Source: a virus (lineage: Duplodnaviria > Heunggongvirae > Uroviricota > Caudoviricetes). Taken from it: a DNA stretch of 64,000 bases. The notes under the pieces are model-generated. The model did not search any database, was not told the origin of the DNA, and saw only the letters and a list, made by a program, of their open reading frames with translations. The stretch is taken from positions 291,216 to 355,215 of IMG/VR virus record IMGVR_UViG_3300049049_000146; one strand, written 5' to 3'. The position numbers and the translations under genes are program-made. Shown piece after piece: positions 33,872 to 43,982 of this stretch; the stretch's first letter is position 1, and every line of letters begins with the position of its first letter.

Positions 33872-34297
33872 GTGCAGATTGAACTACGGCAGCATGAAGA
33901 TGGCACCTACGTACTTGAAGTAGTCTCGAACAATCAGAAGAAGGAAGTCGACGTAACGTTGATTATCCAAGAGATTGTCGTCAACAAGCTCAAGTACCTA
34001 CAGACCAAGCTTCAGCTTGAAGAGCGTTACAGGAATTGGATTGTCGAGTCGGCTCAAGAAACTAACCGTAGTCTCTCAACCACTGCATCTAGGTACGCCC
34101 AGATGCAGCAGCGTCTCAAGGAAACTAACGAAGCGATCTATACCGCTGTCGACCTATGGCGAAAGCAAAAAGAACTTCAAGGAAGCATGATGGTTCTGAA
34201 CCGAGTAGCGGATCAGAATCGCCACTTCATCGAGAACGACTCAGCGCTCCAGAACCTAGAGAAGGTCCTGAACAAGGGCCAGAAGCCACAGGGCTAG
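33872..34297 (+). CDS. Hypothetical coiled-coil protein
   Basis: 141 aa, AAGGAG upstream. Confidence 0.6.
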   Translation: MQIELRQHEDGTYVLEVVSNNQKKEVDVTLIIQEIVVNKLKYLQTKLQLEERYRNWIVESAQETNRSLSTTASRYAQMQQRLKETNEAIYTAVDLWRKQKELQGSMMVLNRVADQNRHFIENDSALQNLEKVLNKGQKPQG

Positions 34298-34752
34298 GGT
34301 CCATCCTAGCGATGGACCCAGGCTCGAAGAACTTTGCCTGGGCCTTCCGTAAGGAAGGGAAATTAGTTACAGCGGGATGGCTAAAGGCCATGCCGACAGT
34401 CTACGAAGATGAAGAGTTCATCAATCACTACCTCGAACTCTTAACCAAGCTCAAGCCTGACTTTGTCATCCTTGAGCGGTTCATGGTGCGTGATCGTGGC
34501 CAGAGCGTTCTGGCAGAAATCATCAACCAGATGATCGGCAGAATCTGCGTGCTCTCCCGTGCATTCGGAAGAGACGTACTACAGGTCACTGCCGCTCAAT
34601 GGAAAGTGTACATGGAGAAGAACAAGGGGAAGGACTCTACCGGCCTGTTCCCTGAGTTGCCGAGCATCCACCAGCAAGATGCTGCGGCTATGGCTCTGTA
34701 CGCTGATGAGTATTGGATTACTGAAACGGTAAAGCGGGCAGCCAAGAACTAG
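34156..34752 (+). CDS. ruvC: RuvC-like Holliday junction resolvase
   Basis: ILAMDPGSKNFAW, VILERF, QWK, HQQDAAAMA; start codon ambiguous (34156 vs 34312). Confidence 0.85.
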   Translation: MAKAKRTSRKHDGSEPSSGSESPLHRERLSAPEPREGPEQGPEATGLGSILAMDPGSKNFAWAFRKEGKLVTAGWLKAMPTVYEDEEFINHYLELLTKLKPDFVILERFMVRDRGQSVLAEIINQMIGRICVLSRAFGRDVLQVTAAQWKVYMEKNKGKDSTGLFPELPSIHQQDAAAMALYADEYWITETVKRAAKN

Positions 34753-35396: not shown

Positions 35397-36084
35397 TTAC
35401 ACCAGGATTTCTTCCCAGTCTCCTCTGAGATACCTCTTTACAGATGTTTTCCGACCATTTCGGTGATCAATTACGACGTCATCCTGATATCGGATGGTCC
35501 GGATCTTATCCCCGCGCATTCCAGAGCCGACTTGCTCCTTTCTCGCCGCTGCCATTGCAGAGAATTTGGCATTCTGTTCTGCTTCGTACAAGCGAGCACG
35601 AAGAAGAGCCTTAGCCAATTCCTTGTTCTGAAGCTGCGAGCGTTCGTTCTCGACACGAACAACAAGCCCAGAAGGCTTGTGAACAGCACGGACCGCGGAT
35701 TCAGTCTTGTTCCGCTTCTGGCCTCCATTACCGGAGCCACGGAACGTAGACCACTCGATGTCGCGTTCGTCGAGACGGACCTGTGTAGGTCCAGGCTCCG
35801 CCAACACAGCGACCGTCACGGTGGACGTATGAACGCGTCCCCGCTTCTCGTTGGGAGGGATTCGCTGGTAGCGATGGCCTCCCGATTCATTCTGGAACGT
35901 ACTGCGGGCACCGCGCCCGCTTACACGGAACGCTAGAAACCCAGGACGCTCTTCGATGACTTCAAACTGGTCAAAGACCCCTCCGACCTCCGAGCTTCAC
36001 GTAGGTCGAGAAAAGCTCGTGTACGAGATCCTTGGCGTCGTCGCCACCTTCACCAGCCCGAATTTCTACGATCACAGATTCCAT
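35397..36084 (-). CDS. Class I peptide chain release factor (domain-1-less, RF1-like), translated via a +1 programmed frameshift; 228 aa
   Basis: GGGAGG RBS and ATG 36084: MESVIVEIRAGEGGDDAK...GRRGL then TGA. The +1 frame continues DQFEVIEERPG...ESGGHRYQRIPPNEKRGRVHTSTVTVAVL...GSGNGGQKRNKTESAVR...ERSQLQNK...GMRGDKIRT. Confidence 0.92.
35970..35984 (-). promoter_or_regulatory. prfB-type +1 frameshift cassette (internal SD, 3-nt spacer, CTT-TGA-C)
   Basis: Minus strand reads GGAGG GGT CTT TGA C, the same geometry as the prfB site (AGGGGG TAT CTT TGA C). Confidence 0.9.
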
Positions 36085-36250
36085 TGCGAACCTCCCTATC
36101 TGTTAGGGTAAGACTACTTCAGACTACGACAAACTAGCTGAGGTATCAATCGGCCTTCGGAGAGTCCCCACCCTCATCGGCCTGTGTCGTCGGTTCTGCC
36201 CCTTCCGAGAAAGCAGAATCGACGGCATCCTTTTGGGATGCCGACATCGT

Positions 36251-37057
36251 TCATTCGTCCCGCTCAGGCGTGTAGCCATCGAACGAAGCAAGGGCCTGGG
36301 CTGCCGCAGCAGCCTGCATGTCTGCCTGAATCTTGGCGTCCTCACGAGCCTGAATATCACAGACCGTGCAGGAACCAAGCTCGTGCACGTGATCAACGCC
36401 GCTGGCGTGGGATTCCGCGACGTGGTCACGTTCCTTTTGCACCATCTCTTCGAGAACACTCATCATCTGCGGCATCAACTCGGGGCCTCGCTCCTCCACG
36501 AGGATACGGCCCATCTCTTCAGCGCTCTCCGCCTTCTCCAGGCGCTCCTGCAGATCGAAACCAGCAACGTCCATCTGGTTGCGGGCTTCGCGGAGGTCGT
36601 CGCTGCTGGGCATCTGGGGAAGGTCCTCGACCTTCTTCGCTTCGCTCTCAGTGCGGAATCCTTCGCCAGACACACCACCGACGGTACGAGCGATGCGCCC
36701 AGTGAACACATCGCGCTTGTACTGCTCCTTCAGATCGACCTTGCTCTGGACGCCGTGGCGATCGAGGAGATCACGGGCAACGGTGCTCGCAGTCTCGGGC
36801 GATTCAGCAAAGCTACGCTGAACCTCCATGCGGAATCTCTTGAGACCATCCTCCGTGAGGGGAGGATCGAGCTTGATGTGAACCTCACGAGGAGGTTCCT
36901 TTGAACCAATCTCAGGCTGCGTCTCGACGAACTCCTTCTTGAAGTGCCAAGCAGGAGGGGCGTCAATCTTCAGACGGAAGATGCGGCCAAGGACTGGAAG
37001 ATGAAATTCGAGACGGTACAGGTCCCGCTCTGAGTCAATGTTGAGTACGAAAGACAT
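36251..37057 (-). CDS. Hypothetical protein
   Basis: 268 aa, GGAGG RBS, 'HVH..GSCTVC' metal-binding motif. Confidence 0.65.
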   Translation of the reverse strand: MSFVLNIDSERDLYRLEFHLPVLGRIFRLKIDAPPAWHFKKEFVETQPEIGSKEPPREVHIKLDPPLTEDGLKRFRMEVQRSFAESPETASTVARDLLDRHGVQSKVDLKEQYKRDVFTGRIARTVGGVSGEGFRTESEAKKVEDLPQMPSSDDLREARNQMDVAGFDLQERLEKAESAEEMGRILVEERGPELMPQMMSVLEEMVQKERDHVAESHASGVDHVHELGSCTVCDIQAREDAKIQADMQAAAAAQALASFDGYTPERDE

Positions 37058-37117: not shown

Positions 37118-37585
37118 CTATCTTTTTCTCTGCTTACCGCCACGAGTCCGGAAAGCCTCTTCCTTCCATCCTCGCTGGATTCTGCGACAGAGACTGCGGT
37201 ACTTGATGTTGAGGAACTTTGCCCAACGGTAGAGGCTCATCGTCCTCTTTCGGCCATCGGGACCAACCGCAGTCACAGAGGTTCCACCAGCGTAGAGTAG
37301 GTAGGCGTTCTGTTCGCTCGCAGTGGCCCAGGTTACGTTCCCTGGCTCGTACCCCTTCGTCGAATCAATGCGATGAAGGGTGCAGCCCTCTGGTCGCTCG
37401 CCTACGTGCTCAAGGAAGCGCTCGAAGCCTCCACGTCCCGTCCATTCGTCGCAAACCGTGATCCCCTTACCACCGTAGTCCGGGTAGCTCTTGTGCTTCG
37501 GATTCCGGCAGCGCTGGTGCATCGCGGTCCAGGTGCCGTACGTCGGGCTAGCCTTGCCGCCCTTCTTGTGACCGTGCTTGCTCAC
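37118..37585 (-). CDS. HNH-type homing endonuclease-like protein
   Basis: TY.TW.AM.QRC.NP...Y..YGG.GITVC.EW..F..F...G.RP...TL.RID...GYEPGN..WAT. Confidence 0.85.
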   Translation of the reverse strand: MSKHGHKKGGKASPTYGTWTAMHQRCRNPKHKSYPDYGGKGITVCDEWTGRGGFERFLEHVGERPEGCTLHRIDSTKGYEPGNVTWATASEQNAYLLYAGGTSVTAVGPDGRKRTMSLYRWAKFLNIKYRSLCRRIQRGWKEEAFRTRGGKQRKR

Positions 37586-41623: not shown

Positions 41624-41958
41624 ATCCTACGATTCAGCAGCGCCTAGCGAAGGTTGCGGCGACCGTAGCGCAGCTTGAGCGGCTGCGAATCGTGGCCGAG
41701 GGTTGCGTATGCCCGCCGAATTCTGCGCCTGTGTGCGGAACTGACGGGCGTACGTATGAGAACGCCTGCGTGTGCCGATGCAGCGGCGCTGACGTGATGC
41801 ACGACGGGCCTTGTGAAAAGAAGGAAGAGTCGAACATCGATGACGGCGCGGCCCCTGCCCCGACCGGATCGCCTGTTAACCACTCGCGTTACATGGTTGA
41901 GCCAGGCCACGGCGAAGCCACTGTTGACTTCCTCAGATTTACGGCGAAGAGAAAATGA
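41620..41958 (+). CDS. Kazal-type domain protein
   Basis: C.CP....PVCGTDGRTYENAC...C.G..V.H.GPC is the Kazal signature; GTGA/ATGA overlaps at both ends. Confidence 0.85.
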   Translation: MNPTIQQRLAKVAATVAQLERLRIVAEGCVCPPNSAPVCGTDGRTYENACVCRCSGADVMHDGPCEKKEESNIDDGAAPAPTGSPVNHSRYMVEPGHGEATVDFLRFTAKRK

Positions 41959-43982
41959 GCAAGACGAATCCCAAGGTCCAGGACGACAACTCACATCTGT
42001 TAGATCTCGATGCGCTGATCAATCAGATTGTCGATTCCGGCCTTGATCCTACAATTTTCGACGTCGATCTTGACGTCAAGTTCGCGAAAAACGTCATCGA
42101 ATTCGCGCTCAGTCCTGAGTACATGAACACCCTGCTCTTTGCTCGCCAGGCAGAGCAGGCAGTCAGGCTGTTCCTTGACTACTGCCCCGCGTGCACAGAC
42201 AAGGATTTCATCGAGGACGTTCCTGTCGATGCATCGATGGGTACCTTCCGTTCGAAGGTGATTCTCCTGGAGCATGGCGTTTGTCCCTCATGCCAGAAGA
42301 ATCGCTGCGAGCTATTTGAGACGATCCCTTACGAACTCGTAAGCTGTCTCGGTCAGCGCTCGGGTAAGACGGCTCTCGCGGGTGGCATCATTTTCCCGTA
42401 CTACGTGCACCGGTTCTTGGAGATCAAGAATCCGTCTCAGTATTACGGGCTGATGAGCAACACGCTGTTCCAGATGACGTTCGTCGCCGTCACGGCTACA
42501 CAGGCGTACGAAACACTGTGGCAGCAGTTCAAGCAGTCGCTTCTTTCCAGTCCTTGGTTCAAGGACTACATGAAGAAGCTGAAGGACGTCGAGAAGGAGC
42601 GTGACTACGAAAAGGGCACGCTCATCAAGGTCATGGATACCTTGATTTGGTTCGGCAACAAGCAGCTGGGTATTTCCTACGCTGCCGCCGACATGAAGTC
42701 CCTTCGTGGTCGTACGCGTGTTGCTGCCGGCATCGACGAGTTGGGCTGGTTCAATTCCAAGGAAGCTGTTCGCGCGAACGCCGACGAAACGTATGCGGCT
42801 CTTGCGAACTCTCTCCGCACGGTTCGTTCTGCTGCTGACAAGCTCTGGAAGAATGGCGACTACAAGGCCCTTCCGGGTTTGATGGTGAACATCAGTTCGC
42901 CTAGCTCTCTGTTCGATAAGATCATGCGCCTACTCAAGGAGGGTGAGCGCGATAAGCGTAAGGCGTGCTTCCACCTCGCTTCGTGGGAGGCGAACCCAAA
43001 CATCACGCGCGAGAGCTTGCACTCGGACGAGATGAATAACCCCGTGGTGTTCTGGCGCGACTTCGGGGCCCAACCTCCCGTCGCCAACAATCCGTTCATC
43101 GAGAGTGCGTCTGCAATCAAGGATCTGAATTCTGGGCGTAAGGCGCTCTTCAACTGGAAGACGGAATACGTCAAGGACAAGGTTACGAACAAGAATCGTT
43201 ACGTCGGCGCAAAGCTCATTACGAGCCAATTCACCGACCGCATGACTCCACGAATCATCACCGTAGACGGCGGCGAAACCCAGAACGCCTTCGCTATCAA
43301 CGTGATGCACATGGAGCGCAGTGCAGATTCGACCGAGTCTGAGTTCACCATCTATACGGATGCGGTGATCGAAGTCAGGCCGGAAAAGATCAAGGAGACT
43401 GAGGAAACCATCCCGGTCCATTTCCCCTCGATGTTCCAGATCATTCTGGACCTCTGCAACCGCCAGACAGGCTTGAACATCCGAGCGGTTCTCTACGACC
43501 GTTGGCAGAGTACCGGCGAAGTACAGCGTCTTCGTGATCTCCGAATCAAGGCTGAACGCTACTCGCCCAAGGAGCAGGACTTCAAGAATTTCCGCAACCT
43601 AGTGTACAGCGGGAATTTCCGTACGCCGAAATGGGAGTACGATAGCGTTGACGAGCTTGACATCACCGATTTGATGCAGGTGAGGGCTGCTCCATACACC
43701 CATTTGGCTCTCCAGTGCGCCACAGTTCGCGAGATTGGACGCAAGGTCGTCAAGCCGGAAGCTGGTGACGACGATCTTTTCCGTACATGTGTTCTCGGAG
43801 CTTATTATCTACTGGAGAACAAGAAGGAGTTCCTCGTCGCTTCAACCGGGGAGCGTCAGGGTGCTGTTGTCGGCTCACTCAGGCTTAGGTCAGCGGGGAG
43901 AATGGGACCGTCGTTCCAGGCTACCAGACCAAAGAACCAGGTCGGTGCTGTTCGAGGTATGAACGGCTTCAAACGCCGCTAG
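41955..43982 (+). CDS. Terminase large subunit
   Basis: Walker A GQRSGKT, Walker B AGIDE, ISSP coupling motif, SWEANP, RDFGA, nuclease TVDGG...YDRWQS...DD. Confidence 0.92.
   Translation: MSKTNPKVQDDNSHLLDLDALINQIVDSGLDPTIFDVDLDVKFAKNVIEFALSPEYMNTLLFARQAEQAVRLFLDYCPACTDKDFIEDVPVDASMGTFRSKVILLEHGVCPSCQKNRCELFETIPYELVSCLGQRSGKTALAGGIIFPYYVHRFLEIKNPSQYYGLMSNTLFQMTFVAVTATQAYETLWQQFKQSLLSSPWFKDYMKKLKDVEKERDYEKGTLIKVMDTLIWFGNKQLGISYAAADMKSLRGRTRVAAGIDELGWFNSKEAVRANADETYAALANSLRTVRSAADKLWKNGDYKALPGLMVNISSPSSLFDKIMRLLKEGERDKRKACFHLASWEANPNITRESLHSDEMNNPVVFWRDFGAQPPVANNPFIESASAIKDLNSGRKALFNWKTEYVKDKVTNKNRYVGAKLITSQFTDRMTPRIITVDGGETQNAFAINVMHMERSADSTESEFTIYTDAVIEVRPEKIKETEETIPVHFPSMFQIILDLCNRQTGLNIRAVLYDRWQSTGEVQRLRDLRIKAERYSPKEQDFKNFRNLVYSGNFRTPKWEYDSVDELDITDLMQVRAAPYTHLALQCATVREIGRKVVKPEAGDDDLFRTCVLGAYYLLENKKEFLVASTGERQGAVVGSLRLRSAGRMGPSFQATRPKNQVGAVRGMNGFKRR

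Follow-up and report, generated by a model that had tools for sequence, protein, structure and literature searches.

The prfB site has been regarded as one ancient invention, bound to RF2 and to UGA, the stop codon that RF1 does not read. At this site, pairing of a Shine-Dalgarno (SD)-like run and a slow stop lead to re-pairing of CUU to UUU, at a rate that goes up when the A site is not filled by a release factor (PMC12421855). According to the accessible text of the same survey, the gate codon of prfB is always one that its product reads, and 12,753 bacterial genomes contained TAG in none of 8,164 prfB sites and not one programmed shift in prfA (PMC12421855). PrfH (RFH), which goes together with RtcB, is a class-I factor that lacks domain 1 and measures about 200-230 aa, and stop-gating is not reported for it in the accessible parts of two papers (PMC6514570, PMC1586002). 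Domain 1 is dispensable for release and required for RF3 (PMC1586002). In recoded Jade, Lak and Agate phages, a phage-borne RF1 or RF2 has been proposed to tune termination (bioRxiv 10.1101/2021.08.26.457843), in a paper whose main text does not contain the word "frameshift". A phage RF1 that is frameshifted or lacks domain 1 was undescribed in the literature searched, including the available parts of PMC7824862 and PMC10746230, and the supplements of huge-phage studies and subscription papers may list such proteins as RF1.

The DNA analysed here, referred to as the window, is a stretch of 64,000 nucleotides from a complete virus record of 423,825 bp with terminal repeats, 57% G+C and 38 tRNA genes. 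The genome uses the standard code and has no suppressor tRNA among the 38, which by description sets it apart from the recoded phages. It contains a +1 frameshift site in a new position, within a gene of a new release-factor family. We read the arrangement, with a probability of roughly 0.5, as a switch that would sense termination on behalf of a broad-specificity backup factor and would close its own synthesis, both the specificity and the feedback being predicted.

The release-factor gene and its interrupted reading frame

The gene is a member of a minus-strand cluster with a RuvC-like resolvase (34156-34752) on one side and the terminase large subunit (41955-43982) on the other. An SD sequence, GGGAGG (36091-36096), stands at a spacing of 6 nt before the ATG at 36084, from which the zero frame runs for 37 codons to a TGA (35971-36084). 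This piece encodes a beta strand (residues 3-10) and helix alpha5 (15-34) of domain 2, as assigned from the open reading frames, the match to PCRF positions 100-132 and the structural model; in the alignment, the helix tip (residues 12-19, E-G-G-D-D-A-K-D, 36028-36051) holds the family-specific residues E12, D16 and K18, D16 being the counterpart of RF1 E123. The Arg codons CGG AGG then form an internal SD-like GGAGG (35980-35984), 3 nt 5' of the P-site codon, and after GGT follow CTT (35976-35974), the gate stop TGA (35973-35971) and a C (35970), so that the slippery CTT-T, stop and C together span 35970-35976; both elements are seen in the sequence and in relatives, and the slip sequence was also compared with shuffles. 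Omitting position 35973 gives a 228-aa product (P0001), whose +1-frame part of 191 codons and a TAA (35397-35972, with the stop at 35399-35397) encodes the remainder of domain 2 and domains 3 and 4, as judged from profiles and the structure match. In it lie the codon-reading loop (residues 73-86, 35826-35867), placed by alignment, and the catalytic GGQ motif (residues 120-122, 35718-35726), placed by translation and alignment. No alternative start yields the codon-reading domain, because the +1 frame is closed by a stop 8 codons 5' of the junction and has no start codon in between.

The ribosome-binding site, start codon, 37-codon frame and slip sequence all lie where the initial annotation had placed them, and its view that skipping one base gives a 228-aa release factor with GGQ agrees with both the translation and the profile matches. 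It had also pointed out correctly that the open reading frame list holds only the last 140 aa, beginning at GTG 35819. Gene callers truncate most members, and annotations therefore largely miss the family. The window holds a single copy of the string GGAGG-N3-CTTTGAC (shuffle mean 0.03; at least one copy in 3 of 100 shuffles), and so does the 424-kb genome as a whole. A second GGAGG-N3-CTTTGA, with A as the next base, lies on the plus strand at 36891-36904, antisense to a gene, and is taken as chance. Neither the region 3' of the stop nor the 5' piece showed RNA structure better than that of shuffles (z -0.62 and -0.22, respectively), a promoter and terminator scan stayed at chance level, PADLOC gave no matches for the release factor and four neighbours, and Pfam gave none in the ORFs directly upstream and downstream. 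Two genes upstream in the same cluster lies an HNH endonuclease-like gene (37118-37585).

The gene product is, as judged from its sequence, an RF1-like class-I release factor of 228 aa without domain 1. With 27.8 bits against a cut-off of 24, the 37-aa piece alone matches PCRF positions 100-132; the second piece matches PCRF 154-194 and the RF-1 domain, and the two stand in profile order. The joined protein scores 215 bits with the prfA profile, 153 with prfB, 91 with prfH and 35 with ArfB, every score being below its cut-off (423, 370, 167 and 100 bits, respectively). The prfA match begins at position 113 of 361, past domain 1, in line with the initial annotation, which had regarded this domain as absent. 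A model predicted from a 53-row alignment (pLDDT 86) matches ribosome-bound RF1 with a TM score of 0.92 and has the junction in the loop that links the helix at 15-34 to a strand at 39-46. GGQ is present in all 125 aligned rows that make up the four main gate classes.

Compared with the known systems, the best profile and structure matches are to RF1, whose Q185, R186, H197, T198 and GGQ are kept; unlike RF1, the phage factor lacks domain 1, is stop-gated and stands on a branch apart from the 30 sampled RF1 sequences (SH-like 98). PrfH shares the size and the missing domain, but the phage factor has PPN in place of the SXY motif, no rtcB directly upstream and a far lower score. The mycobacteriophage "RF-1 peptide chain release factor" (PHROG 3122) and ArfB have the GGQ domain in common with it, but these matches cover just 21-24% of the query, around GGQ and without the codon-reading domain, whereas the window protein has the PCRF domain 2. 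The site itself resembles that of prfB in its SD-like run, 3-nt spacer, CTT, stop and usual C, in its register, which is the same as in the prfB genes of loci L362 and L368, and in gating a class-I release factor. It differs in that its SD is spelt by Arg-Arg codons within an RF1-like gene, and in that sister lineages of the phage family use an in-frame stop instead. The gene is predicted to work like prfB but, judged by the features that define each of these systems, belongs to none of prfB, RF1, PrfH and ArfB.

Conservation and origin of the gate

A locus search with the single protein gave no matches, and an alignment-based query was required. The protein search recovered proteins of 220-240 aa that form one family; of its 122 rows (120 matches and the two queries), 52 begin to match no earlier than residue 30, often opening with the +1 reading of the site. 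Among the best 80 of 330 viral matches to the C-terminal part, 74 have a +1 shift at the same codon (CTT-TGA 59, CTT-TAG 12, TTT-TAG 1, CTT-TAA 2), as the initial annotation had expected of homologues; three of the other six have an in-frame stop at this codon and three are open. A second set, obtained with a frame-blind DNA pattern for the N-terminal part, comprises 119 loci, and the 118 scorable ones divide into 55 shifted, 52 with an in-frame stop and 11 open. Both sets, minus 39 loci without flanks and clustered at 90%, gave 130 representatives, 119 of them stop-gated (84 by a +1 shift, 35 by an in-frame stop) and 11 open. The 82 representatives shifted at the window's site use TGA (64), TAG (15) or TAA (3), two are shifted elsewhere, and the 35 in-frame stops, at several positions, are TGA in 34 cases and TAG in one. 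Gate stops occur at offsets 25, 26, 27, 32, 36, 39, 40 and 42 from the conserved EGG; because the gates come in several designs and offsets, it is the stop that is conserved rather than one slip sequence.

In each of the 82 genes that shift at the window's site, the +1 frame continues without interruption to its end. The P-site codon is CTT in 81 of the 82, against a gene background of 0.17, and the Arg codons of the SD run are AGG in 44 of 46 (background 0.115) and CGG in 56 of 67 (background 0.175). The preference persists in 45 sequences thinned to 62% identity (CTT 44/45, AGG 21/22, CGG 29/36), and the p-values of these codon comparisons are overstated because related sequences are not independent. 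The base after the gate stop is C in 58 of the 82. An SD match of 4-5 out of 5 is found in 56 of the 82 shifted genes and in none of the 35 with an in-frame stop; it is weak or absent in 26 shifted genes, and with 11 of 130 representatives ungated, neither the SD nor the gate is essential. Ordinary RF1 loci are uninterrupted (145/145). Two bacterial copies carry inserts of 8 and 29 codons upstream, with CTT-TGA-C still directly before the next strand.

That the programmed +1 site is real is therefore close to certain. An assembly error or a disabling mutation would account for the extra base without any function. The assembled contig that crosses the junction with 0 differences at a depth of 615 may itself be the source of the sequence, three other sequencing runs leave the junction uncovered, and many database relatives are in frame, 70 of the 122 rows matching from the N-terminus, in a list biased to full-length proteins. 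However, the same site recurs in 82 distinct phage and bacterial genes with both halves intact. Its presence in relatives, the selection on synonymous codons and the placement of CTT-TGA-C despite the inserts exclude error and decay in our judgement of the comparative data, which leaves such an artefact a very small probability. Homologues in frame, which the initial annotation had named as the mark of a pseudogene, are limited to the 11 open representatives.

The slip site aligns to RF1 W144 and RF2 F161 in domain 2, far in the alignment from the prfB site as seen in L362 and L368, which lies at codon 26 in domain 1; the position is thus not homologous to that of prfB, as had been proposed. 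RF1 has E-x-[RK]-[GR]-W here, ungated family members have x-R-x-G-L, and the read-through gates most often consist of a TGA at the very codon of the RF1 Trp. Since Arg-Arg-Gly-Leu codons need only one added base to yield the cassette where they stand, an origin de novo is likely and preferred over a transplant. The initial annotation had offered "independently acquired or relocated": independence fits better than relocation, as the cassette residues align in place with RF1 E140-W144. That a second release-factor lineage has the same cassette at a different place, with read-through gates at the codon next to it, makes a clear case of convergent recoding.

In a FastTree phylogeny of 162 rows rooted on two RF2 rows, the family forms a single branch (130 rows, SH-like 98) apart from the 30 RF1 and two RF2 rows, with a placement as sister to RF1 that depends on the root. 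The shift takes 9 changes on this tree, a figure whose rooting bars counting origins or placing the family inside RF1. On the same tree the TAG gates, which distinguish 15 of 82 family sites from the TAG-free prfB sites of the survey, are scattered (13 changes, at least 4 of them forced by well-supported branches). A more careful tree was built from the 82 shifted genes only, and a single clade of TAG gates is rejected (p-AU 4e-42; 15 vs 67 rows). Three loci (L262, L334, L107) have CTT-stop +1 sites at other codons, at offsets of about 42 with TAG and 36 with TGA, and these cassettes are likely further independent origins. Four others (L038, L065, L067, L304), nested among shifted genes, have an in-frame stop at the shift position after a non-slippery codon and are likely conversions from shift to read-through. 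Two family genes (L309, L322) contain two in-frame stops each.

The codon-reading head and what the gate would sense

In the preferred reading, translation would start at ATG 36084, where ribosome-binding site and start codon are in place, and at codon 38 a host factor would normally terminate and free the 37-aa peptide, as is established for UGA and RF2. When the A site stays empty, GGAGG would pair with 16S rRNA and the peptidyl-tRNA-Leu would slip from CUU to UUU, as established for prfB, and the gate would signal that termination capacity runs short during infection. The cassette would then be a sign that phages monitor host termination. The full factor, with GGQ kept and domain 1 missing, would release peptides without RF3 and would rely on host PrmC, since PrmC is absent from the phage genome. 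If it reads UGA besides UAA and UAG, it would shut its own gate, and for such closure we see about even odds. Sensing by the factor's own activity is the less secure step, since the protein scores as an RF1 and RF1 does not read UGA.

The residues of the head point in two directions. The third-base contacts are of RF1 type (Q185, H/Q197, T198, I/V196), R186 and P188 of RF1 are also kept in the family, and in the window protein Q73, R74, P76-P77-N78, H85 and T86 align to RF1 Q185, R186, P188-x-T190, H197 and T198. The RF2 features SPF, V202 and R213 are absent, the window protein having PPN, Q73 and V84. RF1 E123, invariant in 146 of 146 RF1 sequences, is replaced by D in 64 of the 65 TGA-shift rows and in all 33 TGA-readthrough rows; RF1 position 119 (T/A) is an invariant E (E12), A125 a near-invariant K (K18) and position 189 a P (P77), as in the SPF of RF2. 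E12, D16, K18 and P77 are near-invariant across the family and absent from the 146 RF1 sequences. T190, invariant in RF1, varies as T/N/S, so that the RF1 PxT becomes PP(T/N/S), with PPT in 45 and PPN in 16 of the 65 TGA-shift rows. The PPN of the window was considered as a special determinant and rejected, since PPT is commoner with TGA gates. The family loop is basic (E-K-R), and the beta hairpin is shorter than that of RF1. The Asp at the position of RF2 D143 has a role in reading G2; the window protein has D19 there, as have 9 of the 65 rows. No residue tracks the gate codon after 1680 tests (best p 0.004), and the head is remodelled family-wide and unchanged across gate codons.

In the accessible parts of the literature, a computational study cited in PMC3974865 describes R186 as holding E123 from bonding G2, a repulsion of G2 has been proposed for T190 (PMC5776981), and single charge changes widened the specificity of RF2 (PMC7530605). 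RF1 itself binds UGA 650-fold worse than UAA (PMC3974865). The use of one head with TGA, TAG and TAA gates, taken with the rule that a prfB gate codon is read by its product, points to a broad reader, and the relatives' use of all three gate stops hints at a protein that may recognise each of them.

The main rival accepts the shift as real and takes the product as a plain reader of UAA and UAG, whose UGA gate gauges host RF2 or termination load in an open loop, the added RF1-type activity freeing RF2 from UAA stops. The prfA score, the retention of Q185, R186, P188 and T198 without SPF, the status of PPN as a minor variant of PPT and the preference for terminal TAA in the family (38 of 65, and also in the window gene) all fit this account. 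The same features weigh against the preferred reading: most of the loop and its third-base contacts are of RF1 type, T is the commonest residue at position 190, the change from E to D at 123 is conservative and its effect a guess, changes of gate codon also alter one loop residue (D/E, N, S), which could be drift, and a good UGA reader would not need a TAA of its own. The open loop, however, leaves unexplained E12, D16, K18 and P77, one head with three gate codons and the zero programmed shifts in bacterial prfA, and we consider it distinctly the less probable of the two.

A second possibility, which we regard as improbable, is a rescue factor of relaxed or non-stop specificity that frees ribosomes on damaged mRNA or hungry codons, with a gate that senses any empty A site. 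The loss of the same domain as in PrfH, tRNA genes within flanks of 0.6-5 kb at 65 of 130 loci and the 38 tRNAs, PTH2, Thg1, two RNA ligases, Ro60 and RlaP of the genome would suit it; the PrfH hallmarks, namely SXY and the rtcB partner, are nevertheless absent, the prfH score of 91 bits stands against a cut-off of 167, the stop-reading residues are conserved, and in the window's genome the nearest tRNA lies at least 43 kb from the gene, which adjoins terminase and resolvase genes.

The initial annotation had tied the gate to the TGA-rich stops of the phage. Its tally of 27 TGA stops in 35 minus-strand genes is close to our recount (23 of 31 ORFs of at least 100 aa at 620-32229), TGA ends 82 of 106 long ORFs of the genome, and start-stop overlaps are possible in 14 of 23 TGA stops in the window; genome-wide recoding of a stop was rejected. 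The tie itself does not hold, since among ORFs flanking TAG-gated relatives TGA is about as frequent a stop (0.42, n=67, vs 0.47, n=291; crude ORF calls), and no relation between gate codon and flank stop usage appeared within GC bins either (67 ORFs for TAG). The TGA bias is a reason for UGA demand and does not explain the gate. Such independence would also suit a fixed attenuator, in which the gate holds a toxic factor at a constant low level and senses nothing, any leaky stop being sufficient: gate design and codon vary freely, and surplus release factor is toxic according to the accessible text of PMC12421855. But a weak ribosome-binding site would be a simpler way to less output and a strong one is retained, 99 of 119 gates are TGA, and this type of site responds to the release-factor level by its mechanism, which makes the attenuator an unlikely explanation.

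A stronger proposal, which we hold at somewhat less than an even chance, joins two statements: that these proteins would be a fourth bacterial class-I release-factor family, found in large phages, plasmids and some chromosomes, which reads all three stops without RF3, and that this family would have re-invented stop-gated self-control several times, including a prfB-type cassette and a UAG version. If the head reads UGA, the family would offer a natural test of the RF1/RF2 split of stop codons, recoded strains would gain a compact tool, and an omnipotent factor would be the natural form of what only mutants have approached so far.

Genome setting and occurrence beyond phages

The sole RF-1 domain of the genome is that of the release-factor gene, and a second release factor is absent from it. 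Around its tRNA array, at 140-214 kb (L389-L393), lies a set of RNA-repair and translation genes with two PF09414 RNA ligases, Thg1, PTH2, Ro60/TROVE, RlaP, NADAR, MT-A70 and Bax1-I. The genome also encodes tRNA-Leu(AAG) and tRNA-Ile(AAT) (c197917-198002 and c92422-92498; L391:26917 region), anticodons that are unusual in bacteria. The former reads the P-site CUU and could tune the slip; such tRNAs lie near only 2 of 84 shifted loci, and CTT makes up 30% of the Leu codons of the genome. Elsewhere, a tRNA with a CTA anticodon stands beside a TAG-gated gene (L080), and tmRNA genes stand beside two shifted genes (L012, L021).

The 139 of 415 called ORFs scanned with Pfam contained no host marker, and the N-terminal piece was found in none of 10 GenBank records of cultured phages. 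Among 401 genomes of the phylum of a Nannocystis metagenome-assembled genome (G001, with L127), six pattern matches comprised four family genes and two others. All four are CTT-TGA shifted, and three of them lie among ordinary cellular genes; these four genomes of the myxobacterial phylum are a hint to the host only. On a 9.07-Mb contig (G242), a CTT-TGA-gated gene (L402:9685-10500) lies inside an array of 38 tRNAs amid cellular genes, which is either a phage relic or a stress tRNA island. Scans of 1/64 of the genome and metagenome collections gave at least two and at least four family members, respectively, among 80 matches listed each, most of them ordinary RF1, and the cellular frequency comes from the one phylum sample only.

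Plasmids of two cultured bacteria, Bosea sp. RAC05 (L405:2501-3202) and Rhizobium leguminosarum TP16 (L406:2501-3210), carry the in-frame-TGA form at the RF1 Trp codon, which makes the family testable now. The Bosea copy, which carries a hypothetical-protein annotation, has cas genes on one side and a HipA-type pair on the other.
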